This document shows, piece after piece, positions 1 through 31,881 of a stretch of DNA of 64,000 nt. Within the stretch, counting starts at the first letter, position 1; every line of letters starts with the position of its first letter. The stretch spans positions 1 to 64,000 of the forward strand of contig JBLDXI010000019.1 of NCBI GenBank assembly GCA_047495785.1. Direction: 5' to 3'. Both the position numbers and the translations under genes were made by a program. Below the pieces are notes generated by a model. That model was not told the origin of the DNA, did not search any database, and saw only the letters and a list, made by a program, of their open reading frames with translations. Source of the DNA: Lepidodermella squamata (lineage: Eukaryota > Animalia > Gastrotricha).

Positions 1-1863
1 GGCCACCCAGCCTGCTTTCCAGAGAACCAATTTAATTTTTTGCTGCGAAAAACGTTCGGAGAGCTGGCATATGACACTGCAAAACGCGAGGAGCAGCTGA
101 GACAAAATAATTATAAACTGACAACGATTTATGCTTGCGAGTTCAAATCAATGTTAGCGCGCAATCAGGAGCTAGCTAAAGCACTGGAGGCAGCTGTTTC
201 CGTAATCCCGCCGATAAAGCCTCGATCAGCTTTGCTTGTGATAATTATTCAAAAATTACATTTTTAATCATAATTTTTTTTTTAATTGAAGGGCGGAAGG
301 TGTGAAGTACACCGCTGTTTCTTCGAGAAAGATGCCAATACTAGCTTGTTTTACGTTGATATAAACTCCATGTATCCATTTGTTCTGTGGTCGAAAGACT
401 TCCCGTGTCAAGATGTATCAATGCAAGTTTTAAGGTGGCGTTTGGATGATGCGAAATTGAGGGCAAAGTTTTTTGATACAACGGACCCAGCGTTTGGCCT
501 GATATCTTGCAAGATAGTACCAAACGCTGCTTTGATAATTCCCTGTCTCCCATGGAAATACGAAGATCGATTAGTATTTATCAGTTGTAGGACTTGCTAC
601 GTCGAGAAAAATTCAAAAACGAGATGCAATCATAATGATGAAGAGCGTGCTCTAACAGGTGTGTGGACTACTGAAGAGGTACGTATGGCTGTCGAGAAAT
701 TCGGGTATAGCCTTCAATCCGTTTTCGAAATATGGCACTACGAGTCCCGAGGAAATTTGAACTTTAAGGATTTTATAATATCGCTTCAAAAGCTCAAGTT
801 GGAACATACACAAATAGCCGCTAATCTTGACGTAGAGAAATATGTGTCTGATTGCCGAGCGAAGTATGGTATCGATTTAGACACGCAGGCTATGCTATCG
901 CCGAATCCTGCTATGAAGCAGATATCGAAGATCCTACAGAATAGGTAGATGGCGTTGTTTTTTAGCACTGGTCTTGGTCTTATATCCCTCGTAGCTTTTA
1001 CGGCAGATTTTGTCTCCGAAGCAATAATTCTACTGTGAAATATCTTGATTCGCCAGAGCAACTTATAGATCTGTTCGAAAGTCCAGGGAAAGTTGTTCAC
1101 ACCATACTGCCAGTTGGCCCTGATGACGAATCTCAACGAGTCCGCGTTTCATATTCCGATGCTCCAGATCACGAACAACCCTGTCCGAGCAATTCAGAGA
1201 TAATAGCCGCTTTCATAACGTCGTATGCAAGAATTTTGTTGTACGAAGAGGTTGAAGGAAGCTATTCGAAATCAATAATTTTTAAAGCTCTTTGCTTTCT
1301 AGATGGCTCGACTCGGTTCGAGGGTAGTCTATTGCGATAGTAAGCATTTTTTCAATTTCCGAGATTTTTTTCAAATTCAATTTTTTAAGCGGATTCCTTA
1401 ATTTACACGCATCAAGAGGGCGAGTATAAAATTCCAGAGGGACCCTTCATGGGTGAATTCAAATCGGAATTAAGCGATGGCGAAATCATTGAATCATGGG
1501 TTTGCATCTCGCCAAAGTCATACTCATTCGTAACTAATTTCAGGTATCGATGAAAAAATAATTTCACTGCGGATTTTTCGAGGCTTTGATATTTTCAGAT
1601 CTGAGCTCAAGTTCAAAGGAATAACTCAGAGCCTCGCAGGGAAAAAATTGTCACATGAATCTTTAGTCAAGCTGTTATTTGAATCATTGAGCGAATCTGC
1701 GCATCCATCTCTGACTCTTGATCAAACCAGATTCCACCGGCGGCACGTTCCGGCTTCAGTGACTCTTGAAACGCTTGAAAAAAGAATAGCGCCACATTTG
1801 AATGATAAACGAATATTTTGCCCTACATCCTTTACTTCAATACCTTACGGGTACCGGGTATAA
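1..1863 (+). CDS. Protein-primed family B DNA polymerase (pPolB), 5' end outside window; introns at 238-291, 945-994, 1251-1302, 1340-1389, 1544-1598
   Basis: Splicing five GT-AG introns of 50-55 nt gives one open frame of 533 aa with PRSALL^GGRCE, YVDINSMYP (motif A), KILQN^SFYGRF (motif B), YCD^TDS (motif C), ISPKSY, KFKGI and C-terminal SIPYGY. Bases 1-170 resemble the tail of the Vsr-like nuclease insert of Polinton pPolBs (GHPACF...T..RE..L...Y....IYACEF). Confidence 0.95.
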
Positions 1864-1895
1864 CTCTTTCATGCATTCTTCTTCTATTAGAAATT

Positions 1896-2348
1896 ATGTC
1901 AGACAGCATTTCACCGGATCGATTGGCTCCTGAGAGTGTAGCCTCTTACGAGTTTGTAAATTCTGAAGTTACCTGTTGCATTTGCCTTGGAATCATGCTT
2001 ACACCTGTACACATTTCCAACTGTCAACACGCATTCTGCGAAACCTGCATTTGTCGATGGGGCGATCGAGTTGAAGCTGGTAAAAAAGGTGGTTTGGTGG
2101 CGTATATGTACTCGAAGGCTACTTGCCCGAAATGCCGCCAATTATATACTTGCTTGGATCTCACCCCTGGGCCGGCTGTTGTAGATCGATTAGTCTCCCT
2201 TTTGCAGTTTAAATGCGTGAATGAAAAGCGCGGATGCTCAGTCAAAATGGACTATCTCAGTCTCATGGAGCATCAAAAGAAATGCAATAAACGGAAAGTA
2301 CCAAAATATACTGGAAATTTTAAATTTCTTCGTCAAAAAGCTGATTAG
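1896..2348 (+). CDS. RING-finger E3 ligase with a SIAH/TRAF-type zinc finger (RNF41/TRAF-like N-terminus)
   Basis: C3HC4 pattern CCIC...CQHAFCETC...CPKC, then C.NEKRGC...H..KC. ATG at 1896 follows an acceptor-like ttctattag. Confidence 0.88.
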   Translation: MSDSISPDRLAPESVASYEFVNSEVTCCICLGIMLTPVHISNCQHAFCETCICRWGDRVEAGKKGGLVAYMYSKATCPKCRQLYTCLDLTPGPAVVDRLVSLLQFKCVNEKRGCSVKMDYLSLMEHQKKCNKRKVPKYTGNFKFLRQKAD

Positions 2349-2454
2349 GGATTCAGCTTCCCAATTGAATCAAGTCTGAAATCCATCTGAAATAAATCCA
2401 TATGCACCTAAACAAAAATATGTTTGAATTTTAGGATCAAATTAACTAAAAAGA

Positions 2455-2792
2455 ATGAAAAGTTCGTACATTTTGGAGCTTAAACTGACGAATGGCAGTA
2501 CTTTCTACACGACTTTCGATGAATCATCGACACTTGCTGACATCATAGCACATCTACACGCTGCTTGGCCGCCAAAATGGGGCGACAAGCTTGACCTGGA
2601 TCAATTACAGCTCTACTGCAAAGATCGCGCAATCAGAAAGTCGGTGCTGCTCAAGTGTAAGTAAATTTCTACCTTTGAACCGAGCTTGATGATTTTCCAA
2701 TCCTAGCATTGAGTCGCCGCGAACTACATGGCTACAAGCATCGCACTTATTATGTCACTATTGTCTCAAAAAGCCCTCTTCCCGAGCTTTGA
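2455..2792 (+). CDS. UBL3/MUB-like ubiquitin-fold protein, copy 1 (intron 2657-2706, 95 aa)
   Basis: LKLTNG...TLADII.HL...WPPKWG....LQLYC..R; the spliced tail YVTIVSKSPLPEL resembles UBL3 HLVARETLPEP. Confidence 0.75.
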
Positions 2793-2864
2793 ACTTTCTG
2801 CTAATGTATAGTAAAGAAAAATACTATATTCGAGCTTGTTTTAAACTTAGATTTGTAACTTAAA

Positions 2865-3189
2865 ATGGAACCTCAGGCTTTTGAGGAATTTTCAGCTAAT
2901 GTCGCTTGGAGAAATGGAGATCAAATTAGCTTGCGATGCCATGCGTCAATAAAAGTAGACGCTATCCTACAGCAGATATATGACGAATGGCCAGATAGTT
3001 GGGGTGAGAAGCCGCATGTGAAAGAACTCCGACTATGTTACAACGGTAGATGCTTGCATAGGTTCTACAAACCAATAAGAAAGTATTTCCCAAGTATTTC
3101 CCAAGTGTAATTGTTTTTATCCAACAGAACTCTGCAACTATCTCCGAGTGAACGTTTTGGAGCTGACAGCTACAGCGCTTCATGTCTAA
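2865..3189 (+). CDS. UBL3/MUB-like protein, copy 2 (probable short intron ending at 3127; 3' end uncertain)
   Basis: ILQQIYDEWPDSWGEKPHVKELRLCYNGRCLH aligns by eye with UBL3 IAKHVYDNWPMDWEEEQVSSPNILRLIYQGRFLH. Confidence 0.75.
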
Positions 3190-3258
3190 TGATTTTCTGC
3201 TATGTATAAAAGATGGGTAAAAAAAGGGATCTTTTTAATTTTAGAAACATTTGAAAAA

Positions 3259-3516
3259 ATGACTAAATGGAATTTGAAAATTCGTATCGATAAGCGATTG
3301 AGTCCGAAATTAACTCTCAGAACGATTGGCGATCTTAAGGTAAATTCTCAATTGCGAATCCCGCTAATTATAAGAATTATACTCTGGCAGGTTTTGTTTA
3401 TACGCAATTGTCCATGCCAACCATGCGTGATTGTCTCTGGAACGACAAAAGCGAAGATCTTTCGTCTATCTGACATTGAGACCGCAATTTGCTTTTACAA
3501 ACAGCGTGAAAATTAA
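3259..3516 (+). CDS. Small hypothetical protein (about 68 aa after an in-frame intron at 3340-3390)
   Basis: ATG follows a tttag acceptor. AG|GTAAAT...GGCAG defines a 51-nt intron. Same strand and spacing as its neighbours; no recognisable domain. Confidence 0.5.
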   Translation: MTKWNLKIRIDKRLSPKLTLRTIGDLKVNSQLRIPLIIRIILWQVLFIRNCPCQPCVIVSGTTKAKIFRLSDIETAICFYKQREN

Positions 3517-3573
3517 GTCGTGAAAAAAGTGATTCAGGAATGGTTTTTTTATCTTAGGTTATAAAAATAATTG

Positions 3574-3924
3574 ATGGAAGCATCTCAAGATTGCGATTGG
3601 AGCAGCTGCGAATCCCTTGATTCTTGCAATTCTGTTGATTCTTCAACTCAAACTTTGCCTTATGAGCCGAACTCTTCAGCTCTTCTCCTCAGGTGGGTTA
3701 CTGGCGCTAAGGTCATCATAAAATGTCGAAAGTCGACTCAGATGCGCGAAATTTTGAATAAGCTGTGGGAAAAATGGCCCGATGGTTGGACAAGCCGGCC
3801 TTCGGACCCCAGAAAATTGAAAATTTACTACGGCCGGCTCAACATTCAAGACTTGACTAACGTCTACGAATTGAGCAAGGATCTTGACAAACGTCATTTG
3901 GTATTCAACGTACGCTGCGAGTAA
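3574..3924 (+). CDS. UBL3/MUB-like protein, copy 3
   Basis: LLLRWVTGAKVII.C...ILNKLWEKWPDGW...KLKIYYG...HLVFNVR; clearly paralogous to copies 4 and 5. Confidence 0.75.
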   Translation: MEASQDCDWSSCESLDSCNSVDSSTQTLPYEPNSSALLLRWVTGAKVIIKCRKSTQMREILNKLWEKWPDGWTSRPSDPRKLKIYYGRLNIQDLTNVYELSKDLDKRHLVFNVRCE

Positions 3925-4023
3925 TAGTTCATCACAATTCAAACAGTTGAAATCTGTATTAACCTGAATAATTGACGCAGTAAAATTAAATGGTTATGAT
4001 ATTCTTTTTTAGGCGAATTAATA

Positions 4024-4374
4024 ATGATATACTCGGCTGCGATTGAATCCCCTTCGATGAAACCTTCAATTCCAGTAATTAACCTCGTTCAGGATGACGT
4101 AGCTATCTTACTGAAGTGGGAGAATGGCAACAAAGTAATCATGCGTTGTCGACCATGGCTATCATGCGACTCCGTGTTAGCAGCGCTGGGGGCTGACTGG
4201 CCAAAAAATTGGGATAAAATTGGACCCACTGACAGATTGCATTTGCACTACAATAAACTTTGCCTTCCCCCTTTTGGTTATAAAGTCGGAGATTTTCTGA
4301 AAGATAGCAGACATCGCTTTGTAACGCTACATGTAAAATCATTTGAGCCCAAGATCAAGCGCATTTGTCCTTAG
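4024..4374 (+). CDS. UBL3/MUB-like protein, copy 4
   Basis: ILLKWENGNKVIMRC...ADWPKNW...LHLHYN...FVTLHVK. Confidence 0.75.
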   Translation: MIYSAAIESPSMKPSIPVINLVQDDVAILLKWENGNKVIMRCRPWLSCDSVLAALGADWPKNWDKIGPTDRLHLHYNKLCLPPFGYKVGDFLKDSRHRFVTLHVKSFEPKIKRICP

Positions 4375-4424
4375 TAAAGTGTTTAATTAACTCTGATTTT
4401 TCTAGTGCAGTTAACTAAAATCGC

Positions 4425-4766
4425 ATGGAAATAGCAAACGATATCTCTCAAACCCTAAGCAAGACGGAAGACTCGACAATTCCAGTAATTGACATAGTTC
4501 GGAACGATCTGACTGTCATTCTTAAGTGGGTTACTGGAGATAAAGTAATCATGCACTGTGAAGAGTTGGATTGTCCGTATGACATTATTCGCAAGTTAAT
4601 GGCGACCTGGCCAAAAAGATGGAAATTCGATAAATCGGCTGAACCTCATACATTATACTTATGCTACGGCGGTCTTAAGCTGCCAGGGTGGCACAGGATG
4701 AGGTTTTTTTTACCTGCTAATGATTCCAGCCGACGATATGTAACACTTGATGTCAAATATATGTAA
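4425..4766 (+). CDS. UBL3/MUB-like protein, copy 5
   Basis: VILKWVTGDKVIMHC...ATWPKRW...LYLCYGG...YVTLDVK; shares an IPVI.(L/I)V..D leader with copy 4. Confidence 0.75.
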   Translation: MEIANDISQTLSKTEDSTIPVIDIVRNDLTVILKWVTGDKVIMHCEELDCPYDIIRKLMATWPKRWKFDKSAEPHTLYLCYGGLKLPGWHRMRFFLPANDSSRRYVTLDVKYM

Positions 4767-4873
4767 TATTAATCGTTTGATTTTATCCGTTTATTCAACG
4801 CATAGGTAATAGGTATTCAATAAATATATCATATGTAATTTCGGGTAATTTTTTATTTTTTTAGGAAAATATT

Positions 4874-5790
4874 ATGATAGCTGACTTCTACAATTCTGGA
4901 TTGCCCCCGAATTTCGCGTGGAAAATAGTGAAATCATTGAAGGTTTGCTGACAAGTAGTCTGGACCTAAAACGCATTTTTTGTATTGTAGCCGTTCGACA
5001 ACTTGCGACCAAAATCTGTTCAGCGAGCATCAGGATTCAGGCGGTTGAAAGTGATGTGCATTTCCGACACGCACGACAGCGATTTTGTTTCAAAGGTGTC
5101 GAAAGCTCAAACATCGGCTCAAGCTGATATTTTGGTTCACGCGGGTGACATTACGACTTTCGGAAGTTCAGCAGAACTACGTCGATTTGATCGTCTGTTA
5201 TCAAGCGTCAAGCCAATGTTCCGAGAAGTAGTTGTTATCGCTGGAAATCACGATCGATGTTTGCAAAGCGGCGAATATGAGCTGAAAAATTGCATCTACT
5301 TGCAAGATGAGGCGATCAGAATCAGCGGTCTTCTGTTTTACGGCACGCCGTGGTAAGTTTCTTGAATCGTGTTTCTTGATTCAAGTTTCTTTCGCGAAGG
5401 ACACCGTGGACTGACAGTCGACATTCGGCTTTCACGCGTGCGAGAGGTCGAGAAATTAGCGCGAAATGGGAGATGATTCCCAGCGATACCGACATATTAG
5501 TTACTCATAGTCCCATGTTGGGTGTTCTGGATCAAACATCGAGTGGTGAGCGGATCGGCTGCCTTTCGCTCGCTGATCAAATTTTAACTCGCATTAACCC
5601 AAAGCTTCACATTTTTGGGCACGCTCATTTCAGTAATCATGTAACAAAAGAAAAATTGAATTCAACTTTTTCTTTTTATTAAGGTCGCGGAGAATTTGAA
5701 ACTGATAATACATTGTTTGTGAATGCAAGCCTGTGTGACGACGAGAACAAGTTACAGTTCAACCCGATATCTGTGGAGTTGCTCTACTAA
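4874..5790 (+). CDS. Calcineurin-like metallophosphoesterase, MPPED1/2 (239FB) type; introns 4943-4990, 5353-5399, 5633-5683; 256 aa
   Basis: The five metal-binding motifs are present: ISDTH, HAGD, AGNHD, THSP, FGHAH. Family motifs YLQDE, YGTPW, KW..IP..TDIL.TH and FVNAS appear after splicing. Confidence 0.92.
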
Positions 5791-6587: not shown

Positions 6588-6666
6588 TTTCGTGTGGCTT
6601 TGACAATTGCTTCGACCACTGTGGGAAGTATTCCTAAAATTGGTCTCATTTATCAATTTTTTTTAA

Positions 6667-6999
6667 TTAAAAAATAAGCAAACCAGCTACGGCTGACAAT
6701 AGCGGTACTACAAAAGCTGCCCCGCCTTTCTGAACTATGTACTGACGATTACTGCTAACAGTTCGCTCGCTTTCACCTAATTTTCTGATAGATTTACTAA
6801 ATCTTCGCAGCTTTTTCGCTAATCTCGGCGAAATCTGAAGGTTCTTGTTGAGGAGATTGAGGCAAACTTCGCTTATAATTCTGATGACCGTATCCGGAGC
6901 AATAGATAACAACTGCCTACGCCGATCAATAGATTTTGCTCGAACTATTTCTCTTATAAAACCCAAAACGCGCTGCGATTTATCGTATGACTTGCGCAT
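6667..6999 (-). CDS. Basic Polinton core protein with an adenovirus pX-like C-terminus
   Basis: ISEVCLNLL..N......KKL......IRKL...QKGG followed by a hydrophobic helix AAFVVPLLSAVAGLLIF, like the pX tail GGFLPALIPIIAAAI. Confidence 0.75.
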   Translation of the reverse strand: MRKSYDKSQRVLGFIREIVRAKSIDRRRQLLSIAPDTVIRIISEVCLNLLNKNLQISPRLAKKLRRFSKSIRKLGESERTVSSNRQYIVQKGGAAFVVPLLSAVAGLLIF

Positions 7000-7055
7000 A
7001 TCTTTAGACCATTATAAATGTGAACAAACACCTCATTTATATATACATTTTATTA

Positions 7056-7799
7056 TTATTTCGGTACATAAATTACACCAGGGAAAGCGCCCACCCCAGT
7101 TCTATAGCGCATAAACTCCGGACAATCAGGACTGAGGTCGATAAGTAAGTAACGATGTCCGCCTTTGCTTGTTTCCATTTCGAAACTCTCCACTACGAAC
7201 CGCCAGCGCAGCGGTTCCAATTGCAGGGCGAGATAGCGGAACGATGTGAGATCTGCACGATGCCGAAAAATGAATAAATATTTAGCATTCAGCGTCATTT
7301 CTTTGGACATTTTTCCTTTGCAGAATATTGCTTGCTGAGTAAAAAATACAGATAACTTCAAATGATGAGAGTATCGATAAAATAATTGAAGAATTTTCGG
7401 ATCGTTTCTTCCTGTATCATACAAGTCATCTATCACTAACAATGTATAAGTATCATCTCCACTGCTTGATTGGAATTCTTCAAAGTTTAGTTGCTCTAGA
7501 CCTTTGCGAAACTCAACAGTAAGACCACGGCTTTTTTCTACTTCATCCTTTATTTGCTGATGCATCCCGGTCTCAACCCCGTAAAACCATAACACTCGAT
7601 GCGGCGCTGGTGATATGGATTCCGGGTCGTTAAGAATTCGTCGAATAAGCCATGTTTTGCCTAATATACATAGGATGAAATGAGATAATATTTATGAATC
7701 GCACAACTAACCTGCGCCGCTAGGACCTATAACGAGCGAGCAGAAAGGGGCTTGCAAGCTAAGCGATACATCTATTTCTGATGGCAAATCGCCAGACAT
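7056..7799 (-). CDS. Genome-packaging ATPase (A32/FtsK-like); intron 7661-7711; 230 aa
   Basis: The spliced protein has Walker A VIGPSGAG^KT, Walker B LLVIDDL, YSHH..SVFFTQQ, LNAKYL.IF and YLLIDL. Its ATG (7799) lies inside the 3' end of the protease gene. Confidence 0.93.
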
Positions 7800-8338
7800 G
7801 ACTGGTGACCGCTACAGGTACCGAAATGACGGGACATTTTCTCAGATTTGCTAACTTTAAATATTCGATTCACCTGATCAACTATGAAATTATCCGTATT
7901 TTTATCAGGAAGCATTTGCGCAATCTTATCCATAGATGCTCCCCTCGCGAACCAGTGAAGCGTTAAATATGCGTAGTAGCCACAAACCGCCGTTGAATCG
8001 CTCTGATATTTATGCTTGTTATAAATGTAATTATTTTTCGAGTTGATGTTCGTTAAAAATGCTTCTATAGCCTTGTTATAGAAGTTCCCGCGCCGACCAT
8101 AGCTATCAAAGAATAAAGCCGGCTCGTTTGTTTGTGGGACATAAATTGACAGCCAATGACTTCCCGGCTGACCAGCGGCGTCTGTATTTACAATTAGAGC
8201 CATGGGACGCTCGCTCATCCCCTGATATCGTGATAGATAATCCCATGGTATAGTCTTTTTAACTGGAATTTTATTGAGATTTCTATCACAGCCAAGTAGA
8301 CAGTCCAACTGGAGGGTATTTAGTTGACCTCCGTTCAT
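7772..8338 (-). CDS. Adenain-like cysteine protease (capsid maturation)
   Basis: IVNTD....PGSHW (His), FFDSYG (Asp) and YQS..TAVCGYY (Gln/Cys) catalytic motifs. Confidence 0.93.
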   Translation of the reverse strand: MNGGQLNTLQLDCLLGCDRNLNKIPVKKTIPWDYLSRYQGMSERPMALIVNTDAAGQPGSHWLSIYVPQTNEPALFFDSYGRRGNFYNKAIEAFLTNINSKNNYIYNKHKYQSDSTAVCGYYAYLTLHWFARGASMDKIAQMLPDKNTDNFIVDQVNRIFKVSKSEKMSRHFGTCSGHQSCLAICHQK

Positions 8339-8343
8339 GCTAT

Positions 8344-9633
8344 TCACGTAAAGTCGACCAGGACGTTTCGTGCAAAATTCAGCTCGATAACTTGATCCGT
8401 CTCAAAGTAACAGAGAAGTATCAGGTTATCGGCTAATGCTTTTTTAAATAATAAATCAATAGAAAGCACGCCACTTTTAACCAGACTGTATGCACTACGA
8501 CTTGAGTCGGGTGAGAGATCGAATCCTATAAAGGAAAAGCCGTCCTTGCTGTATTCTGATAGCTTTATACCATTTGTTTTAGTCGAGTAAGGAAACAGCG
8601 TCTCCCTAAGAGCACTCATAGCCCGAGCCGATGTATTTTCGCCCTCTCCAAATTCGAGCGGGCTGTTTGGGACATGCTCGCTATCTATTGTGACAGACAC
8701 GCGCTGAACGCCAGCGTTTTTAAAGTTGTAAGGACTGGTGAAGATGTCGCCTTTGAAATCACTATCGCTAACGAAAGACATCACCAGTCGTCTGGGTATT
8801 TTCCCTAGTATAACGTGCCCAAGGTTGTAGTTAAGAGATCCCTTTTGCAAATTCAAGACTTTAATGAACGATCTGTTCACACCATACTTGGCCGTGGTTT
8901 TTGTTAGTGTTCGATTCAGCGCCAACGTAAATTGCGGAGATACGCGAACGCGACGCAATTTGAGCTTAGCATCAGTAACTGTTAGTGTATAGTCCATCTT
9001 GTCCCCGGCAGGTTTCATCAGAGCAAACGCCTCAGGTGCGCGTATGAAAGTCAACTTGAAGGGCGTAGCCGGAATCAGAAATTTCGGCTGAGAGAATAGC
9101 TCTAAATGTGGCTTGCCTATAAGAACCATCTCGCCTTGCTTTGCCCAAGCAAGTCTGGCGGTATGACCCTTGCCAGCAGGATCGCTGACTTTACCAGCTT
9201 CGTCTGAATAATAGCCTTGCAATGCCAAGTAGCTATCCTTAGCTGTCGGATCACAACTCAGTAAAGTTGAAATATAAGCCTTATAATTATATGTCGGAGC
9301 CGGTTCGCTGATTTGCGTATTATTTATGCTCATATCTATTTGACTGAACATACTATGCAACAGAAGGTTAACCGGCGAGCAAGTAAGGTCAGCTAAAGTC
9401 TTTGACGCGTCGCCATTCACTATTTTACATGTTATTTCCACGTATGAACGGCTCAAATCTGTCCAATCATTGCTTGGAGGGATGTCAAAATCAATGCGTG
9501 ACTGATTGGCGATCGCGGAAACTGGTCCATATTCTGTAATGTAATTGCTCTCTATCTCAACTTGAGTAGGGTTCAACGAAAAGACATTCAGCTCAGCGCG
9601 AATTGCGTTTTCAGAAGAGGGGTGGACGTACAT
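8344..9633 (-). CDS. Major capsid protein (double jelly-roll, hexon-like)
   Basis: 429 aa, intronless. EL.VF...PTQ..I, TDLSRSY, PVNLLLHSMFSQID, YNYKAYI.TLL, LFSQPKFL, G.IPRRL, SPYNFKN and F.GFDLSPD are typical Polinton MCP motifs. Confidence 0.93.
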   Translation of the reverse strand: MYVHPSSENAIRAELNVFSLNPTQVEIESNYITEYGPVSAIANQSRIDFDIPPSNDWTDLSRSYVEITCKIVNGDASKTLADLTCSPVNLLLHSMFSQIDMSINNTQISEPAPTYNYKAYISTLLSCDPTAKDSYLALQGYYSDEAGKVSDPAGKGHTARLAWAKQGEMVLIGKPHLELFSQPKFLIPATPFKLTFIRAPEAFALMKPAGDKMDYTLTVTDAKLKLRRVRVSPQFTLALNRTLTKTTAKYGVNRSFIKVLNLQKGSLNYNLGHVILGKIPRRLVMSFVSDSDFKGDIFTSPYNFKNAGVQRVSVTIDSEHVPNSPLEFGEGENTSARAMSALRETLFPYSTKTNGIKLSEYSKDGFSFIGFDLSPDSSRSAYSLVKSGVLSIDLLFKKALADNLILLCYFETDQVIELNFARNVLVDFT

Positions 9634-9684
9634 GGCAGTGAGATGATTATTTAATCTCGGTTTTAACTCCTTTAAATAGGGTTT

Positions 9685-10147
9685 TCAGAAGGAAACGCGT
9701 TTTGTGCTCCTCTTTTTTTTCGTTGGCATTTTTTGTTTGGCTACGTACCGACGACGACGACGCCGACCAGTTCCGATTTGCGAGCCTACTCTAGATATTA
9801 CATCTTTTGCAACTCCCTTTAACCCTTCCACTGCACGTTGTTTCAAAATCGCTCTGGGATTGGCATCTTTGTTTTCAAGAAGATCCGTTGCAATGTTGGC
9901 TGTTGTATGACTCAAATTCCGAAATATCGGTCCAAGTAAGGGAATGATATGATTGCGAAAAAACCCAGCAGCTACGCTCCCGAACCCGTTTCCTGTCTAT
10001 ACTAACACATTTTACACATTTTCACCGATTGTTACCGATTATTTTTACCTGGTATGAAGGAAAAACGATAGACTGTCCGCGAAATGGCTCTATCCCATAT
10101 CCACTTTGTTGCAACAAAAAAGACTCGTAAGCATCGGCTGAATACAT
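9685..10147 (-). CDS. Polinton core protein with an Arg/Lys-rich tail; intron 9997-10048; 136 aa
   Basis: Spliced: MYSADAYESFLLQQSGYGIEPFRGQSIVFPSYQ^TGNGFGSVAAGFFRNHIIPLLGP...QIGTGRRRRRR...KKKRSTKR. This matches the Q.G.G...F.G...Q.G.GFG..F pattern of the ORF between the capsid genes. Confidence 0.8.
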
Positions 10148-10248
10148 GTTTTATTTAGCTTTGTGTACAGTTTAAATCGAACCTAACTAATCCATTGTCT
10201 TTTTTTACAGCTGAGCTTTCCAACTTTTTCTAAAAACGGATGAATGGC

Positions 10249-11939
10249 TCATAAATAAATAAATAAATAAATAGCAATAGGTCTAATCTGAACTAATATA
10301 ACAGCCTTACCACTAACGAATTTTACAGGTAATCCAGAGTCTTTATATATTTGAATCTCAATAACAGACAAAACGCGACGTTTAATTGGGACAAATATGG
10401 GTTTTTCAAAAGTTTTCGAAAAAAAGCTTCCTTTGTCTATCGTTTTTTCCGTCGGAATTACTCGCAACAGGGGTGTGCGGGTATTTCCGACATACACGTC
10501 ATCAATTACGTCAGCGTACAAGAATAAGAAGGGCATTCCGTAATCAAGCTGGGGTGGAAATCTTGCGATCGCTTGATCGTCAACATGATGGATTGTGTAG
10601 AAATATTCTATTATCGATACAGGTTGCTCTTCGTGACTTGGCGGGTTTTGGTCATTTTGCGGACCAGATGGCTGAATTTCGACCGATGGGCTAGGAGCAC
10701 TTGATGACCGCTCTTTCACCGCTGTGCCGCTCTGATCTGACTGATCCATCGATGACTCGTCTGGCTCACTTTCATGCTGGTCTAGATCAACATTATCGTC
10801 AGGATTCTGATGTGTTGTCTCGTCAGGTAACAAATCTTTCTTTGCTGGATCCGTCGCTTTGTCTGACTCATTCTTCACAACTTCATCGTCACCAACCGCA
10901 GGGTCAGCCGGTTGATTATCATCTGGCTTCGCGGTCACTTGTTCATCTGGCTCAGCAGTCACTTGTTCATCTGGCTTCGCAGTCACTTGGTCTTCCGTTG
11001 ACTCGCCAGGCTTCTTATTATCACCCGATGGAATTGGCGGAAGCTTTCGCTTTCGTTGCGGTGGGTTACTGTCATTCGATACCTTTTTATCATTCGGATC
11101 TTGCCTATTCTCAGCTTCCGTCTCATCCTCTTTATCGACCTTTTTCACATCATCGTCAGCTGGGGGTGGCAACTCTGCATCTTCATCGGATCTTCGAGAT
11201 CTAACTTTACCGGGTACTCTTTCCGGTAAAAATAGCCCACCTTTGAATCTAACTTTGTTGAATTCATTCACATCTGCTGATATGGAACGGTATGGTATTC
11301 TCTGCCTACTTCCAGTAACGACATAGCCAAGCATTAGCCTGAACGCTGCGCCCATTTTAACCACGTCATTTGAAAACCCTTCGTCCTTTCTATCGAATTT
11401 GTGGAATGCAACAAAGGCACCAGGGTACCCTAAAACTTGCGCGAGTTCCTTAGGTATAAATATTCCCCATTTACCAATGGCGACCTTCAGTGACACGCGA
11501 TTTGTGATTTGCACGTACTCAAATGTAATATTCTTCGTTATGCTCTGAACTTCCTTCTCCATGTGAGTAAGCAATTCTTCTATGTTGGAGTAATATACTC
11601 CTCCGACCTGGCATTCATGCAGATTTTTCGTGTCAAATGGATCCGGAGCTTTGTATGCATCAGGTTGTTCCAACCATTCGCAATCAAAAACGTAAAAATT
11701 TGTCGGTTCTATCGACTCCCAAGCTGATGGACCGTTAAATTCCACGAGACCCATTTCCCATTGACCTAAATTTTTTTTTAGTGCGGGCTATAAGTGACTT
11801 TCATTTTTATCATACCCACTGTGCCAAGATCAATATCGTTGGCCAACTTGACGCGAAATGACGACGCTGTGTTGTCAGGAAACAGATCGTTGGATGCGTT
11901 CGATGGTAAGTAAAGTAAAAATTCTTGCCGCGCGCTCAT
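10249..11939 (-). CDS. Minor capsid protein (penton) with a long acidic/Pro-rich insertion; intron 11766-11815; 546 aa
   Basis: Exon 1 FLLYLPSNASNDLFPDNTASSFRVKLANDIDL^GQWEMGLVE and the C-terminal LFLYADVI....VGN..TPLLRVIP...P.FVP......IEIQI..D.G.PV.F..GK are classic penton ends. Confidence 0.9.
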
Positions 11940-12169
11940 GTCGTCGTGTTATTAGCAATGCGATGAAATAGCCGATCCCTCCAAGACCAGTAGATTTCAA
12001 TAGAAAAATATGTGGCGCAGAGAGCTAACAGCGATATTATTCCGAGACCTTTTTTTCTCCTACTAACTGCAGCTGCTAGCCTACTGCTAACACTGCTGTG
12101 CGGCGAACTACTTTTACTTGCTCTTTCGTGTGATTCTTCAGGTGCCTGAGGAGACTCTGTTCCACACAT
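11936..12169 (-). CDS. Small single-TM protein (77 aa)
   Basis: RRKK is followed by hydrophobic GLGIISLLALCATYFSIEIYW. Its stop overlaps the penton start (ATGA) and its start abuts the upstream stop. Confidence 0.55.
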   Translation of the reverse strand: MCGTESPQAPEESHERASKSSSPHSSVSSRLAAAVSRRKKGLGIISLLALCATYFSIEIYWSWRDRLFHRIANNTTT

Positions 12170-12250
12170 TTATCGGCGATGCACGCGTTTGTTACCGCGT
12201 TTGCGTGCTGTGGATTTTCGTTTCCGGATAGCTCGTCTAGGACCAGGCAT
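12170..12250 (-). CDS. 26-aa protamine-like basic peptide MPGPRRAIRKRKSTARKRGNKRVHRR
   Basis: Exactly fills the gap between the integrase stop (TAATG overlap) and the next ATG. TATATAAA lies 34 nt upstream. Too short for the ORF track. Confidence 0.6.
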   Translation of the reverse strand: MPGPRRAIRKRKSTARKRGNKRVHRR

Positions 12251-13497
12251 TACTTTCCCCTCTTTTTGGCCGATTTTCGCTCCTTTATATATTCATTTTG
12301 GACGTCTTTTATTTGGTCAATTGGCTCCCATGAACTTTGAGATTTGGGAAACCCAACCCAGCTAACTAAAACCCGCGTTGTTCCATCCTTGAATTTTCGC
12401 TTCTCTTTACTCACTTCATCTATCAGGTATTCATCCGGTAATTTGACTTTTTGAAGCTCATAGTGATAAAAAACGCCTGCAACAGGTTCGGTGTAGTCGC
12501 CGTTTTCTGTGCTCCATCCATTCAACTTGTATGTATGCGGCCCGTACCTGTCTGGCTTGATGGCTTTCGCTATTTTGAAATACTCATCCGTATAAGTAAA
12601 ATGACGAGCGCGGGCAAAAACGCCTCTCTCTGCTGAGATCCGTACTACATCGTCTAATTTAAAAGCTGATGGCTGCCTGCGACCTTCTTCTATGTCCGCT
12701 CCGAAAACGTTATTGTAAGCTATATACTGCTTAGGGCTGTCCTCGAAAATATCGAGATTAAGCTCCTTGTCACTCCCGATTTTACGCCCACTCTCCTTGT
12801 CATTGTACAACTCTGCGGGTGTGAACTTGGTAGATGAGTGACGGGAGTCATTGTAAACTCTAACGATGTTCTGCAAATCATCGACGAATCTACCGTCGTT
12901 TCGCGCCATCGCAAGCTTAGCCAGTCGCATGCGCAGTAATTTGTTGAATGACTCTATTTGAGGAACTTTCTTTTCCGAATTCGTAGCGAAAAAATGAATG
13001 GATTCTGATTTCAAATATCGCTCAACGTGTTGGTTGAAAAATTCTGAACCTCTATCGAACACAACAGCGTACGGTTTTTGCTTAGCGTCCTTCATAACTA
13101 TTTTCAGAGCTCTAAGTGTTTCGGGACCGGTTTTATTTCGCATCGTTTGCACCCAGGCGAAACGACTGTATGTGTCCTTGGCTGTAAGTATATATTGCAC
13201 GTTGTCGTTCTCGCCCTTTACATTTCTCACGTCCACCAAGTCCATAGCGAACAAACTTCTTCGACTAAAGCATGCCACCTTCCGGGTTACTCGATTCCTC
13301 GTTCCGACCTGCTTATAAACGCTCCACGTACGTTGATTTCCCAACCAGTTCCTTACTTGCCGCATTGTGATCTTTCGACCTGGATACTTGACCCTGTAGG
13401 CTTTGTAAAGAGCTGATACGCTACCGAGACCGCCTGGTTCACCCGGGTCGAAGTAAATTTTTCGCAAATCTCGGTCATCTTGATCTAACGTTGGCAT
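12250..13497 (-). CDS. Retroviral-type (rve) DDE integrase with a C-terminal chromodomain
   Basis: IYFDP..PGGLGS..LY, AMDLVD (D), VFDRGSEF (D), IESFNKLL (E), YN...HSST..TP, FK..D.VRIS and chromodomain YLIDEV...VLVSWVGFP...SSWEP. Confidence 0.95.
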   Translation of the reverse strand: MPTLDQDDRDLRKIYFDPGEPGGLGSVSALYKAYRVKYPGRKITMRQVRNWLGNQRTWSVYKQVGTRNRVTRKVACFSRRSLFAMDLVDVRNVKGENDNVQYILTAKDTYSRFAWVQTMRNKTGPETLRALKIVMKDAKQKPYAVVFDRGSEFFNQHVERYLKSESIHFFATNSEKKVPQIESFNKLLRMRLAKLAMARNDGRFVDDLQNIVRVYNDSRHSSTKFTPAELYNDKESGRKIGSDKELNLDIFEDSPKQYIAYNNVFGADIEEGRRQPSAFKLDDVVRISAERGVFARARHFTYTDEYFKIAKAIKPDRYGPHTYKLNGWSTENGDYTEPVAGVFYHYELQKVKLPDEYLIDEVSKEKRKFKDGTTRVLVSWVGFPKSQSSWEPIDQIKDVQNEYIKERKSAKKRGK

Positions 13498-13552
13498 TTT
13501 CGTTGTATATTCCAACTCTAGCGTTTTGCGTTTTAAATAGTGACATTCTGTA

Positions 13553-14467
13553 ATGGAAAAGTATTCTTACATCCGAGCTATTGGCTCAGGTTCTTTCGGC
13601 ACTGTCAGTTTACAGCGCAACATTCCCCTAAATCGAATGTTTGCAGTGAAAATGATAGATACTACGATCCCCTACAAACTCGAGTCTGCCACTCGGGAAA
13701 TTGAGTGCCTGCAAATACTAAAATCTGCGCCAAACGTTATTAGGTAGGCGACTGATATTGTTTTGACCACCGAATTACTTAAATCGTATAGACTGCATGA
13801 GGTTGTGTTCACCACTCGACGTGCATTTCTTGTGCTGGAATGTCACCTCATGGATATGAAATCCTTGATTGGAGTGATAACTCGACCCTGGCCACTTGTT
13901 CTACTAACCCGATGGTTAAACCAGCTTTTGACTGCTCTTGCATATATTCACGCTTGTGGAATAATTCATCGCGACATTTGCCCGCAGGTTTGTCAGTTTT
14001 TGTCTTTCAGCCAAGTTTTCAACACCTAATTACAGAATGTACTCCTGCAAACCAGCTGGGTCGATGTATCCCTCGCTGATTTCGGCATTTCGCGAACACT
14101 GCCCGACGACACCTGCCCAGATATGACCCCGGAAGTTACGGCGTTTCACTACCGAGCGATCGAAATAGTATTCCCTAAACCTCGATATACGAATAAAATT
14201 GATGTTTGGTCCCTAGCTGCTACAACTATTGAACTTGTTACACTTGCACCGTTTTTCTCCGCTCAATCTACTGTCAACATATTCAATAACATAAAATCTA
14301 AAACTTCCAGTCTTGATGATTTCTTTAGGTGTTTGAACACATTCGTTCACTGCGATTTCACCGAGTACAGGCAATTGCTTGAGCTACTGTTCTCAATGCT
14401 CAATAACAATCCTGAATCTCGTCCATCAGCAGATCAATCTCTAATTCTGCTCAATGCAATCTTATGA
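13553..14467 (+). CDS. CDK-like (CMGC) Ser/Thr protein kinase; introns 13744-13791 and 13988-14035; 272 aa
   Basis: GSGSFG, AVK, SATREIECL (PSTAIRE-like helix), HRDICPQ^N, ADFG, MTPEVTAFHYRAIE, IDVWS, NPESRPSA. Confidence 0.9.
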
Positions 14468-15101
14468 TATCAACATTTCGGTTTCCAACATTGTCGCAAC
14501 CTTCAACGTTGGAACTCCCATAGATCTACATCTCCTTGCTCAGCGTGGGGTTAATACGTTCTTCGATAGCAGGCAAATACCCGTATCAGTAAAGATCCGA
14601 TTCCCCAGTCACATTTCAGCAATGGTTTACTCATCAGGCCATGTTATAGTCATTGGAGGAAAAGGGTCGAAGGACACTGCGGATTTTGAATGCAAAGCCT
14701 TGGTCATCTTACACAAGCTACGGAATTGGATGTCAATTCCTTCTCTAATCTTCGATCGGTTTAATATTAGAAACATTGTCATAACAGGACAGCTACCTTT
14801 TCGATTTTTGCAAATTTCAACACTGTATTCGGAATTTTCATCGGTGAAAATGCCAGGATTCAAAATTGTTTACATACCTGAAATGTTCTGCGCTATGAGA
14901 CTTACCATCAATAATGTGAAAATTAGCTTTTTCCCAAGCTCTCATAAGTTTAATGTTGTCGGCGTTAAAACATTAGATCATGGGCTGAATATTGTTCGTA
15001 CTTTTGTCCAGCTCTGCATTGATATTCACGAAAAAGAGTTGACTGATTTGGGGTTAACCGAGCTAGATTTACTGTTCCTGAATTCCTGTTTCAATAATTA
15101 A
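14454..15101 (+). CDS. Divergent TATA-binding-protein family factor (TBP/TRF2-like)
   Basis: Two TBP repeats: ISVSNIVATFNVG.PIDL..LA.RG.N...AMVYSSGHVIVIG and FNIRNIV.TG.LPF...Y.PE.F.A......IS.F.S.K..VVG.K. Confidence 0.85.
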   Translation: MQSYDINISVSNIVATFNVGTPIDLHLLAQRGVNTFFDSRQIPVSVKIRFPSHISAMVYSSGHVIVIGGKGSKDTADFECKALVILHKLRNWMSIPSLIFDRFNIRNIVITGQLPFRFLQISTLYSEFSSVKMPGFKIVYIPEMFCAMRLTINNVKISFFPSSHKFNVVGVKTLDHGLNIVRTFVQLCIDIHEKELTDLGLTELDLLFLNSCFNN

Positions 15102-15135
15102 AAATTTATTATTCTTAGACAAGATTTATTGAGTC

Positions 15136-15747
15136 ATGGCATTGTCCGCACCAGGTGTTGAGCTGACTGTTTTCAATATAAATCCGCAACTGAACCTCGG
15201 AATCGATAATATGCCCAATGGACACTATCTTCGCAATCAGCAGGTGGAAAAATTACGAGCTGTGAAATCTCACTTTCTAAGGACAATGCACGGCTCTGTT
15301 GTTGTTGACATTGTATCTGGAAAATCCGGCGTTTGCGTCCTCCTACCTTACGTGCTCAAATCTAGCAGAGTTTTGGTGATTACGCCTTCTCAAGACATTA
15401 CACGACAACTAGCATGGGATTTTACCGGAAATTTGAAACCTGAAACAGCCTTCCTGTTTCGCGCAGGCGTTTACACCTTCTGGAAGACATGGCCGACCAT
15501 CATACCTAAATGTTGCATTTTCGATCACTCTTACAATTTTAATCAGGATTTCAACCCACCACCTCTCTTCATCACCAACAGCTTTGATTTGAACCTTATC
15601 CCTCTAAATCTTTTCGATTTAGTAACCGTTGTTAACGCACAAGATTTTCTACTTTCATCTTTGAAGCTCATCGCGGAACGTTTTAAAAAGGTCAAAGTAG
15701 TGTTCCTTGCAGACCGTAAGATTGCCGATTTCAACGTTATTATGTAA
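15136..15747 (+). CDS. Stand-alone, apparently inactive SF2 helicase N-terminal domain (ResIII/DEAD-like)
   Basis: Q motif LRNQQ, degenerate Walker A SGKSG and motif Ia RVLVITPS..IT.QL. The Walker B position reads FDLVTVVNAQ instead of FDLVIVDEAH. Confidence 0.7.
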   Translation: MALSAPGVELTVFNINPQLNLGIDNMPNGHYLRNQQVEKLRAVKSHFLRTMHGSVVVDIVSGKSGVCVLLPYVLKSSRVLVITPSQDITRQLAWDFTGNLKPETAFLFRAGVYTFWKTWPTIIPKCCIFDHSYNFNQDFNPPPLFITNSFDLNLIPLNLFDLVTVVNAQDFLLSSLKLIAERFKKVKVVFLADRKIADFNVIM

Positions 15748-16014
15748 CACTAGACTTGGGTGTCAGGTACTGGTTTCAGGTTCTTTTCTATTAATCCATG
15801 TTGTTAGCCCCATTAATGTCCATGTTCGATGATCCATTGATCAATAAAAATGAGATTCCGTAACGTGTTTTTTTGCTCGAGCGTCAAATAGGTGACTACC
15901 AGACATTCTAGATTTTTTGTTCTGAGATAGATTTCATAAAGTACCATAAAGTACCAAAAATTTGAGTCCTAATTTATTATTTAAAATTAACTTTTGACGT
16001 TGTTTCTTTTTAAG

Positions 16015-16474
16015 CTCCTCACACTTCCTCCTCTCAGGTGCTGATACGACGAGCGTACACCCTAATTACGGCACTGCTCTCGAGATTGCCGCCAAGTTTG
16101 GGAACAGTTTCCCAACAGCCGTGCTGACAATGATCAGAGCTAATCCTAAGTTGATTAACACCGTAGATGCGGTTAAAGGCTATTCGCCCCTACATCGAGC
16201 GGTACTTAACCATAACATTAAGATGATGGAGTTGCTTCTTGAAAATGGAGCTAACCTTGAGGTAATGTCAGTAAAGGGCGAAAGTCCTTTGAATCTGTTG
16301 ATGGGCTCCAACTGCTGTTATCCACAACTTCCAGTGGTTCAGTTCTTAATCGACAACGGTGCGAATATTAACAGTCCTGATTCGTCAGGCTGCACTCCTT
16401 TGTGTAAAGCGAAAAATGCCGGCAAGCGGCCGGAGATCGTGCAGTTTCTGATAGATCACGGGGCTAAATTTTAA
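16015..16474 (+). CDS. Ankyrin-repeat protein (last exon; start exon not resolved)
   Basis: The frame is open from the acceptor at 16014 and contains the repeats YGTALEIAAKFG, GYSPLHRAV...LLENGANLE, GESPL...LIDNGANIN and GCTPL..A...LIDHGA. Confidence 0.85.
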
Positions 16475-16760
16475 AAATGAATAAATGCGAATTGGTCTTT
16501 CGTTTAATTCTTAATCCTTATGAAATGACTGCCGACAGTGAAACCAGTGTCTCAGGTCTCGGGCACGATAAAATAAGACATGTCTGAAAAAAATATTTTT
16601 ATTGAGAAAAGTCACACTCGCAAGTGGGGAATTTTGGTTCTTTACTTCAAAGTTCGAAAAAATGAAATGGTGCTAAGATGGTGCTAAGCACTTTAAATCA
16701 CAAAATAGTTTCTGGTCTTTGTAAAAGTTAGCTCGAGCAAACGCTTCATTATGGCAAATG

Positions 16761-17483
16761 TTAGAAATTGCGATTCTGCGCAGCAACTGGGCCACTTACT
16801 CCAGAGCGGCGCTTGTTGCCAGCAATAGGCGAATTGTTTTTAGGACCTGAACTGCCAGAGGTTCCAGGACGGTGACCAGGACCTGTACGTGAAGCATTGC
16901 CCTTGGGACCTGAGGTGCCAGAGGTTCCATGACGGGGTCCTGAACCTGAGCGTGAAGAATTGCCCTTGGGACCTGAGGTGCCAGAGGTTCCAGGACGGGG
17001 CCTGCTGCCAGCGTTGGTTGAATTACCCTTGGGACCAGTGCTTCCGGTGGCTGCAGGACGGCGCCTGTTCCCAGCGGTGGCTGAATTCGCCTTCGGACCA
17101 GTGCTTCCAGTGGCTACAGGACGGCGCCTGTTCCCAGCCATTGTCGAATTCGCCTTCGGACCAGTGCTTCCAGTGGCTGCAGGACGGCGCCTGTTCCCAG
17201 CGGTGGCTGAATTCGCCTTCGGACCAGTGCTTCCAGAAACTCCAGGCAGACGCTTCGTGGCTACCACGGTTGAGTTTCCCCTGGGACCAGAGCTACCGGT
17301 TTTCCCAAGAAGGCGTTGCTTTCCGATCAAGCCATTGGTACCCGCGTTGACGCTTATTGGTCCGGTTTCACCTCTTAGCTTATCATTGATGAACCGGCTT
17401 TGTTGAGCTGCGTACGATTCCGCAATAATAAGGGATGCCCATAGAATGGTGAAAAGAGTCACTGATGCTGTAATATTTCTCAT
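16761..17483 (-). CDS. Secreted basic Gly/Ser/Thr/Pro/Arg-rich repeat protein (degenerate collagen-like)
   Basis: Signal peptide MRNITASVTLFTILWASLIIAESYA, then about seven 21-aa repeats such as GSTGPKANSATAGNRRRPAAT. Confidence 0.75.
   Translation of the reverse strand: MRNITASVTLFTILWASLIIAESYAAQQSRFINDKLRGETGPISVNAGTNGLIGKQRLLGKTGSSGPRGNSTVVATKRLPGVSGSTGPKANSATAGNRRRPAATGSTGPKANSTMAGNRRRPVATGSTGPKANSATAGNRRRPAATGSTGPKGNSTNAGSRPRPGTSGTSGPKGNSSRSGSGPRHGTSGTSGPKGNASRTGPGHRPGTSGSSGPKNNSPIAGNKRRSGVSGPVAAQNRNF
16840..17300. repeat. 63-bp coding tandem repeat (about 7 units)
   Basis: Units such as ggaccagtgcttccagtggctgcaggacggcgcctgttcccagc... recur every 63 nt. Confidence 0.85.
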
Positions 17484-19203
17484 AGTTGGGAAGTAATAAG
17501 ATAAACTTCAACGTTGAGGAAATTGCTGGTAAATCCAACAATTTTATAAAAGTTCAGAGCCTCGTCGCTTCATTTTATACCCTCATGTAGGCGAGTAAAC
17601 AAACATGGTGTGGTTTAATGATGCTACCCTTGATTTCTTTTTTACCCTTCTACTTCCCTACAGATTTGCTTTATTTTTTGTCTGCTTTTATTGCCAAGGG
17701 CGGCTTGCAGTGGCTTCACCCCAGCGTACTCGTCGCAAGCCACAAGCTGCTTACCTTTCCCCTCTGCGTTTTACTTTCTCAAACTGCACTCATTTGCGGC
17801 AATTCAGCCTCAGAACGAAGCGCCCTCACGCCCTCAAATATCTGCCAACGTTTTTTGTCGTGTTATTTCTGGTGTAGCGATAGCGATTAGGTAGGTGTTT
17901 TCTAGAAAAAACTGTCGTAAAAATAGCATGGCAATTGCGTGTTCGAGTTTCACCTGAGCGTAAACAACCCAAGACTATAGATTAAACTGACAATGGTTGA
18001 CATTGTTAAAACTCGACAATAAATGAAAAAAGGGGGAAGAAAATTATTGCTACGTTCAAAAGAAGCCGTCGATTCGAAACGATGAAACCTCACGCTTGTT
18101 GGTAATCATTTTCGACTGTCTATTTAGCATTCGGAAGTGTTTTCTTCACTCAGCCTTTTGGTCGAAACAGCACCTTCTTGATTCCTTCAAGCCCTCCTGG
18201 ACTAATCTTTTGAAACCGTTCTCGTATGCGTTTGCCCGCGTCGAAGCTATCAACGGCGACTTTGGGACGAATCTTATGGCGAACGCTCCTTGGTACGCCG
18301 GCTTGAGGGGACTGGGCACCTTAAATTCCCTACAGCCAACCGATAAAACAGCGCGACGCGCGACAGGTGCTCAATGACAAATGCACTGCCTGGTTTAATG
18401 CTGCGAATGAATCCTCCTGGGATTAGGATGCTGAGCGAGACAAGTCGGAAGTCATAAGTCAAAAGCATTTTTATTCGCTGCCGATTGGATCTGCATTTTT
18501 TGCTGGAAAGTCACTGCTGAAAAATCAGTCCACGCATTATGAAGTCTTCTCTAATTTCCAAATAAAATGTATAATTTGCAAAACACATTTGAATTTTTTC
18601 AAAGCCTTGCTCCAGATTGCAGAATTCGCCAGTTTTGATGTCAGAAAAGTCTTATTATTTATAGTTATTTTACATCGCTTCGGCGGAGGGGAGATTTGAG
18701 GCTGAAAACGATGGGATTATCCTACTCACCTGCTCACCTGGGCGTAGGAAGCCACTATTTTCTCCTTTTCTGCGGTTTTTCTGCTCAACACATCGTGGTG
18801 AAAATTTGAGGAAAAATGTTTCATATTTTTATATTCACTTTCCAAGGAGAAGTCGGTATAGTCTATGCTTGAGCTTACCGAATTATTTCGTAATATCAAG
18901 AACATTCTCAGCTTGGAAACCTGCAATTCTCGCAGTCGAAGGCTGTTAAAGCGACGTGACTTGTTGTTGTATTCCTTGTTTGAACTTTCAAATGAGGCCG
19001 ACTTACCTACCTACTTGGTTTTTTTTCTCGAGTAGACAATAAGAATTCTATACGTGCGCTCTATTCCTATCTATCAGTACGGCGCCTTGAATTAAAAAAA
19101 AAATAACCCAAATTTAGATTTCAGCGGCGAATCTGACGCTCCACTACATACCCTTTTCCATGTGTTTTCGAGATATTTTTTACACTTCCAACCTGAATAA
19201 AAG

Positions 19204-31687: not shown

Positions 31688-31881
31688 AAAATCGTCTGCA
31701 TCTTCTAAAAGTTTCAAGCGATGTTTAAAGATTAGCAAGCTCGAACTAAGCATATCTTCAAGTTATCTTTGCGGCCTGCCTTACACAGGTTCATGCAATG
31801 TTGTGCGCGCAATCTAGCCTTCTTTCACATTCAAAGGGAATAAAAAATCACTGGCTACGGTTGGGCTTTGGGTGTCCAAAA

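Follow-up and report, generated by a model that had tools for sequence, protein, structure and literature searches.

The first 16 kb of the window (the whole 64,000-nt stretch analysed) is a Polinton in which pPolB, integrase, packaging ATPase, protease, and major and minor capsid genes are all present, and which extends ~3 kb to the left beyond the window. The integrase scored above its Pfam cut-off and the polymerase fragment and protease below theirs, and the capsid genes were recognized by homolog searches. This Polinton is apparently intact and carries a gene for a TBP-like protein. The features are as follows.

1..1863, plus strand: 3' part of the protein-primed DNA polymerase B gene, with several short introns
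1896..5700, plus strand: accessory genes, from profile matches (RING/SIAH-like ligase, several ubiquitin-like ORFs, calcineurin-like phosphoesterase)
6667..6999, minus strand: conserved Polinton ORF, whose homologs adjoin the ATPase in metagenome loci L001, L002/L004 and L014
7056..7799, minus strand: packaging ATPase, Walker A motif split by an intron
7772..8338, minus strand: adenain-type (C5/C48-like) protease, below the Pfam cut-off
8344..9633, minus strand: major capsid protein, F54H12.2-like (27 homologs, 23-36% identity)
9685..10147, minus strand: small basic protein, likely intron
10249..11939, minus strand: putative minor capsid protein, one likely intron; homolog beside the protease in L004
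12170..12250, minus strand: 26-aa Arg/Lys-rich ORF
12250..13497, minus strand: retroviral-type integrase with chromodomain (Pfam)
13553..14467, plus strand: CMGC/CDK-like protein kinase, frame kept across two 48-nt GT-AG introns (13744-13791 and 13988-14035)
14454..15101, plus strand: TBP-like gene, 215 aa, uninterrupted from ATG to TAA and intronless
15136..15747, plus strand: 203-aa ORF with weak ResIII (SF2 helicase N-terminal) similarity (E 0.0018, below the Pfam cut-off)
15948..16005, no strand assigned: last stretch common to other copies, part of a subterminal repeat unit

We take the name F54H12.2 to be a marker of Maverick capsids, and the small basic protein and the 26-aa ORF are presumably pX/cement-like and core-protein-like, respectively. 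The kinase has intact HRD and DFG motifs, with the catalytic-loop Lys replaced by Cys, and diverges from the integrase across a gap of only 55 nt. The start of the TBP-like ORF overlaps the final 14 nt of the kinase ORF, and an ATTAAA lies at its stop codon. Among the accessory genes, a tandem array of small ORFs (five or six, of which at least five resemble one another) directly follows the RING/SIAH-like ligase (2455-4766, plus strand), and three of them gave weak ubiquitin/SUMO-like (Rad60-SLD_2) matches. A contig break falls on a (TTTA)n tract (10244-10280) where the putative minor capsid gene ends, and copies may differ there.

Contig depth in one sequencing run was 160-192 over positions 1-15986, with one substitution across three long contigs, and dropped from ~160 to ~60 past 16005 (58-61 at 16033-17928; 26-89 on host contigs farther right). 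This step fits several near-identical copies of the element, where depth does not equal copy number. The TBP-like gene is on the 160x contig, adjoining the 192x integrase contig, and lies inside the element, ~900 nt from a right edge near 16005. That edge is defined by the depth step and a repeat joint; neither a terminal AGT/ACT repeat nor an inverted copy of 15948-16005 was found in the window, and the left end lies beyond it. At ~16005 other contigs continue into a tandem subterminal repeat, and an ankyrin-repeat exon with a splice acceptor follows here from ~16038. The right end of this copy may be truncated or may lie in a host intron.

The host sequence analysed was that of the window, where neither terminal inverted repeats nor a target-site duplication could be marked out, which leaves some room for the gene to be the host's own single TRF2 or TBP gene beside the element. 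We consider this very improbable, however, because the gene sits well to the element side of the depth step, on a contig whose depth is that of the element, because its start overlaps an element gene, and because a clade with animal TBP is rejected and the TRF2 signature residues are missing (below). The claim of the initial annotation that the gene is Polinton-encoded and not a lone host gene is thus upheld by its integrase and capsid flank as well as by depth. The host is an animal, judged from the genes it contains. Three features were observed to the right of the element: an intronless 240-aa collagen-like ORF at flank depth just outside it (16761-17483, minus strand; Gly-X-Y with a 63-nt repeat and a signal-peptide-like start); a tandem array (30539-45145, plus strand) in which at least four long ORFs, each of ~380-407 aa and without introns, are joined by part of another copy, and of which the single ORF scanned contains a ligand-gated ion-channel binding domain but matches no transmembrane family in Pfam; and a 10-nt tandem repeat array (42678-42838).

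The Pfam TBP family (PF00352) matched the 215-aa protein at 52.8 bits (cut-off 22.9; E 3.5e-14). Only the first repeat (residues 8-88) clears the cut-off by itself, and the second is indicated by predicted structure. Matches among PDB sequences were TBPs (E ~1e-8). A structure model made with a 114-sequence alignment has two lobes (pLDDT 93), and its predicted fold aligns with human TBP over 176 residues (Z 19.4, rmsd 1.8 Å, 21% identity), with which Foldseek agrees; a single-sequence model was poor (pLDDT 37.6), so the good model depends on the TBP alignment. In that model the core begins at about residue 4, which leaves no N-terminal extension. The C-terminal 25 residues include five acidic, one basic and seven Leu, and residues 203-213 form a predicted helix. 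Divergence is high: among 1.84 billion representatives the best E-value was 1.1e-10, 181 proteins were retrieved at E 0.001, and identity was 23-42% across matched stretches. A word-index homolog search with the protein gave no matches, nor did the prokaryotic genomes searched. The ESM Atlas puts the protein among TBP clusters, which we treat as a lead only; viral members dominate the top two clusters and eukaryotic ones the third, with Nematoda the most frequent group. As modeled, ORF 14454-15101 is a complete two-lobed TBP fold without an N-terminal extension and with an acidic, Leu-rich tail, in agreement with the initial description of a highly diverged, intronless, full two-repeat core. 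Two divergent TBP-like proteins from our searches (P0014 and P0081, one from the mite Leptotrombidium) have acidic Leu/Met-rich C-terminal tails.

Residues are given here in what we take to be the corresponding yeast numbering, and partner surfaces (TFIIB, TFIIA and others) are those to which we presume the residues belong. The protein keeps N69, V71, N91, R107, S118, K127, K138, N159, V161, E188, F190, F207, K211 and K218, and K145 is also retained in the alignment with the PDB TBP matches. Altered positions are F116 (Tyr), T124 (Ile), T215 (Val), V213 (Asn), P191 (Cys) and I194 (Arg). The DNA face accordingly retains N69, N159, V71, V161, F190, F207, S118 and R107, with Tyr at 116, and both DNA-contacting Thr (124 and 215) and Pro191 are changed. 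The core is also less basic, with 19 Lys and Arg against 26-30 in four canonical TBPs. The intercalating Phe and the TFIIB surface, which the initial annotation had singled out for checking, are preserved in part: position 99 is deleted or Ile, 116 is Tyr59, and 190 (Phe145) and 207 are Phe, and the TFIIB stirrup Glu pair is incomplete, with E186 replaced by Ile141 and E188 retained as Glu143. Other partner-surface changes are E93 to Phe, Y139 to Ala and the loss of three basic residues of helix H2. According to the available part of PMC3142196, the Phe pair of the C-lobe enters the box at its 5' end and that of the N-lobe at its 3' end, which makes the 5'-reading half of the protein the intact one.

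Relative to structures of cellular TBP (human, yeast and Arabidopsis), the protein shares the two-lobed saddle (Z ~19), N69/N159, F190/F207 and E188, and differs in its low identity (~21%), missing N-terminal extension, extra acidic C-terminal helix and changes at F99, T124, T215, P191 and E186. Like TRF2 (TBPL1/TLF), it has the one-residue deletion at Phe99 and a G-[VI]-N motif, and N-lobe identity reaches 35%. The deletion gives a 13-residue spacing found in 17 of 252 aligned rows (this protein, 11 flagged TRF2-like and five others), compared with 14 residues in 222 rows. Unlike TRF2, it has Tyr59 and not Trp at 116 and Phe145 and not His at 190, a signature that is also read from the alignment made here, and its C-lobe strand is not shortened. 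Arg194 is present in all 12 Polinton-clade rows and in seven others of the 252.

Phylogenetic placement differed between analyses and between lobes. In a 25-row tree of the whole core the protein joined TBPs borne by other Polintons (L001, L004, L007, P0012, P0211 and others) at 94/93, unstarred and on a long branch; in a 63-row quick tree it was unplaced and did not group with them. Whole-core trees put the protein outside the TRF2 clade, and AU tests on the whole core rejected an animal-TBP clade (p 0.001) but not a position sister to TRF2 (p 0.096). The N-lobe scored 64.9 bits with a TRF2-enriched profile, 47.3 with a canonical one and 27.9 with the Polinton TBPs, and grouped with TRF2 in its own tree (85/83), whereas the C-lobe scored best with the Polinton TBPs (32.5 bits, against 21.3 and 10.5 for the other two profiles) and grouped with them (91/84). 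Neither alternative placement was rejected by lobe-wise AU tests (N-lobe p 0.40, C-lobe p 0.16). The TRF2-enriched set was picked by a residue rule that admitted four non-TRF2 rows and missed some TRF2-like ones, and the cellular sets all came from searches seeded with this protein or with an alignment containing it, which may bias the scores. The protein also has Arg194 and two loop insertions in common with the Polinton TBP clade. One further protein, P0005, had been suspected to be a Polinton TBP from the size of its contig (17 kb) and turned out to be TRF2-like.

The gene does not qualify as a standard TRF2 or as a recently captured TBP, and the label TBP/TRF2-like is apt, given TRF2-like traits in the N-lobe and their absence from the C-lobe. 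Judged from these alignments, the disagreement between lobes may reflect a hybrid origin, with convergence on a long branch as likely. A more specific version combines a two-origin hybrid (TRF2-derived N-lobe, Polinton-TBP C-lobe) with the CDK-like kinase and the helicase-like gene into a three-gene minimal initiation module for box reading, Pol II tail phosphorylation and promoter opening. We regard this version as distinctly improbable; if true, a transposon-virus of ~19 kb would possess an early/late switch in the manner of herpesviruses, its early genes operon-like and its late genes driven by TATA boxes. The N-lobe score and grouping, the AU result for a TRF2 sister position and the plus-strand genes without boxes (below) would also suit a TRF2-like or private DNA-binding factor that acts at TATA-less plus-strand promoters or at terminal repeats, in replication or integration, and not at TATWTAAA boxes. 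This role is rather unlikely in our view, since Trp116, His190 and the shortened C-lobe strand are absent and since the C-lobe and the whole core go with the Polinton TBPs.

Other Polintons have TBP-like genes as well. Searching with a profile of the nearest family fetched 80 metagenome loci, and in six of them a TBP-like ORF has Polinton genes as neighbours (checked with Pfam for L001 and L004):

L001: polymerase and ATPase
L002/L004: integrase and ATPase, with protease and minor capsid also in L004
L003/L014: ATPase
L007: polymerase

Near-duplication within L002/L004 and within L003/L014, and an assembly prefix common to L001, L003 and L007, reduce these to about two independent lineages. 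The remaining 74 loci, many of them short, showed no Polinton gene. A Heterodera protein (P0211) and the P0012 group, known from protein sequence only, fall within that clade too (support 97, 63-row quick tree). Viral-contig scans with P0012, P0174 and capsid, TBP family and ATPase alignments returned no loci. The statement in the initial annotation that TBP is not a standard Polinton gene holds in that it is not a core gene; it needs amending in that the gene recurs at these loci and that a TBP is labelled in the Fig. 5 legend for MELD viruses with adintovirus-like PolB (Starrett et al. 2021, PMC8502044). The MELD-virus gene is likewise TBP-like and in a Polinton-like midsize dsDNA element; in the available text of that paper it is a label only, with no residue or promoter analysis, and a search of one supplement for TBP gave no matches. 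Among the relatives, the TBP-like genes at L001:2180-3547 and L003:953-2122 apparently have an N-terminal extension on a separate exon, unlike 14454-15101, and this extension is homologous to the N-terminus of Heterodera P0211. In L004, where the TBP gene directly follows the integrase, PAZ-domain and NADAR-domain ORFs lie at 1833-2156 and 3757-4053.

Pairwise dN/dS among five TBP ORFs of the L001 lineage was 0.10-0.25 in nine of ten pairs, with one pair saturated; the values describe relatives ~25% identical to the protein studied here. The codon comparisons suggest that TBP-like genes of that lineage are under purifying selection. This recurrence under selection, together with the shared Arg194 and loop insertions, the intact frame and the retention of fold-defining residues at ~25% identity, argues against the gene being passenger cargo, captured long ago and unimportant to the element. 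That explanation would suit an element with varied cargo and a gene that has no close relative in the databases searched and whose selection is measurable on relatives only, but we think it quite unlikely.

We found 22 TATWTAAA sites in the whole window, compared with 10.2 expected. In the 7.8-kb structural module (5751-13545) there are seven on the minus (coding) strand and none on the plus strand, confirming that the sites noted initially are real, and the host part of the window has 14 in 48 kb. Across 500 shuffles of the module the mean was 0.64 boxes and the maximum 4, so that none reached seven; the motif was named after the sequence had been viewed, and these figures therefore overstate significance. 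Four of the seven boxes end 33-37 nt before an ATG (integrase, small basic ORF, major capsid gene and the ORF after the ATPase), such that a box at this fixed distance is present at only four of nine module genes, and the other three are 56, 89 and 104 nt from an ATG. Clustering as tight arose in none of 100,000 random placements, a comparison in which the motif was post hoc and placement ignored AT-rich spacers. The boxes, all on the minus strand, include:

13532..13539, minus strand: TATTTAAA, ends 34 nt before the integrase ATG, in the 55-nt integrase/kinase gap
12284-12291, minus strand: TATATAAA, ends 33 nt before the ATG of the 26-aa ORF
9671-9678, minus strand: TATTTAAA, ends 37 nt before the major capsid ATG
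8443-8450, minus strand: TATTTAAA, 104 nt upstream of the protease
7856-7863, minus strand: TATTTAAA, 56 nt upstream of the packaging ATPase
7036-7043, minus strand: TATATAAA, ends 36 nt before the ATG of the conserved ORF 6667..6999

No exact box lies within ~100 nt of any of 11 plus-strand starts, that of the TBP-like gene included. An acceptor-like site lies within 30 nt of the start in six of nine plus-strand genes (TBP included), in none of nine module genes and in six of ten host ORFs (background 13%), counting ORFs other than two on the plus strand and three on the minus strand with doubtful starts. The contrast between six of nine and none of nine points to two promoter classes. Pyrimidine-rich acceptors were seen 5-24 nt before the ATG of most plus-strand element genes (1896-4425 and 14454-15136), suggesting that early genes are trans-spliced in an operon-like manner or share a spliced leader.

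We give roughly an even chance to the reading that the element encodes an early viral TBP that binds the TATWTAAA boxes before the integrase, capsid and packaging genes and helps host Pol II to start late transcription. Under this proposal the plus-strand genes (polymerase, kinase, TBP, helicase-like) would form the early class and the box-bearing minus-strand genes the late class. The intact C-lobe Phe pair would grip the 5' TAT half of the box, the weakened N-lobe pair would loosen the hold on its 3' half, and the altered partner surfaces could release the protein from normal TFIID, TFIIA or NC2 control. More speculatively, the acidic tail or the neighbouring kinase might aid Pol II recruitment or release. 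The spliceosomal introns in element genes point to transcription by host Pol II. Late-promoter reading is supported by the seven strand-specific boxes, four of them at a fixed distance from an ATG, and by their absence before plus-strand genes; by analogy, the herpesvirus protein ORF24 may offer a precedent (below).

The strongest argument against this reading is that both box variants also function well with yeast TBP. With purified yeast factors, canonical TBP transcribed TATTTAAA at >75% of the wild-type CYC1 level, and TATATAAA matches the TATAWAWR consensus (both from the available part of PMC2396422), so that these boxes can work without a viral factor and host TBP alone could serve the promoters. 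Redirection of Pol II to late promoters, as first suggested for this gene, is thus consistent with where the boxes lie but not demanded by what they are. Late-promoter reading is further weakened because Phe99 loss is mostly shared with TRF2-like proteins, and TRF2 does not bind TATA boxes (available part of PMC3142196); because Thr124, Thr215 and Pro191 are changed, the matching Pro being essential in ORF24; and because the core is less basic and the fixed-distance box is confined to a minority of module genes.

If host TBP reads the late boxes, the element protein could instead be a decoy that likely binds TFIIA, TFIIB, NC2 or Mot1, shifting them off host promoters or relieving repression. 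Besides the function of canonical TBP on the boxes, such a dominant-negative is favoured by the TRF2-like N-lobe, as TRF2 can inhibit transcription by sequestering TFIIA (in the part of PMC3142196 available), and by retention of the TFIIB-stirrup E188 along with N91, R107, K138 and K145. However, the partner surfaces are eroded beyond what a decoy would lead one to expect (E186, E93, Y139 and the H2 basic residues), and the DNA face retains both Asn and three aromatic positions. We consider a decoy unlikely, and the dominant-negative effect on host transcription raised in the initial annotation found no specific support.

The precedent for a viral late-gene TBP is KSHV ORF24, whose homologs are BcRF1 in EBV and UL87 in HCMV. 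ORF24 reads TATTWAA ~30 bp upstream of late starts, and promoters that it binds include TATTTAAAG and TATATAAGA (available parts of PMC12529657 and PMC6541308). As far as those texts describe ORF24, the two systems share a viral TBP-fold protein, TATT-type late boxes (four of the seven boxes here fit TATTWAA), a proposed use of host Pol II and a Leu-rich stretch outside the core. They differ in that ORF24 has additional N-terminal (Pol II-binding) and C-terminal (DNA-binding) domains, whereas the 215-aa protein is almost all core; in that ORF24 keeps four Phe and lacks both TFIIB-binding Glu, whereas the Polinton protein has lost one Phe position and keeps one stirrup Glu; and in that the Polinton protein, unlike ORF24, is recognizably a cellular TBP by sequence. 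ORF24 also needs five other viral factors (vTAs), and no partners of that type were found among 50 ORFs or ORF fragments scanned, 37 of them from the window. Nucleocytoviricota (BFVD matches) and mirusviruses likewise encode a TBP fold, but also their own RNA polymerase (in the available part of PMC10132985), whereas the section of the element inside the window showed no RNA polymerase gene; structural identity to the protein here is only 9-20%. Viral TBPs are thus already known in giant viruses, mirusviruses and herpesviruses. Our literature search, which covered few subscription papers, found the MELD-virus figure label and no paper analysing a Polinton TBP or late promoter.

If early production of a box-reading TBP is correct, compact varidnaviruses would have independently reached the late-transcription strategy of beta- and gammaherpesviruses; to our knowledge the timing of capsid-gene expression in animal Polintons has not been described. 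Because the viral TBP is small, stands alone and lies beside a defined 8-bp box, the question can be tested directly with one protein and one oligonucleotide, and the lobe-wise mix of TRF2 and TBP is a natural experiment on the residues needed for TATA recognition. Finally, we compared boxes across relatives, all of them TBP-bearing Polintons. In L001, L003/L014 and L002/L004 the ATPase gene is preceded by TCTATATATAC at a distance of 31-35 nt, and TATATATA lies 50-52 nt upstream of the L007 ATPase.
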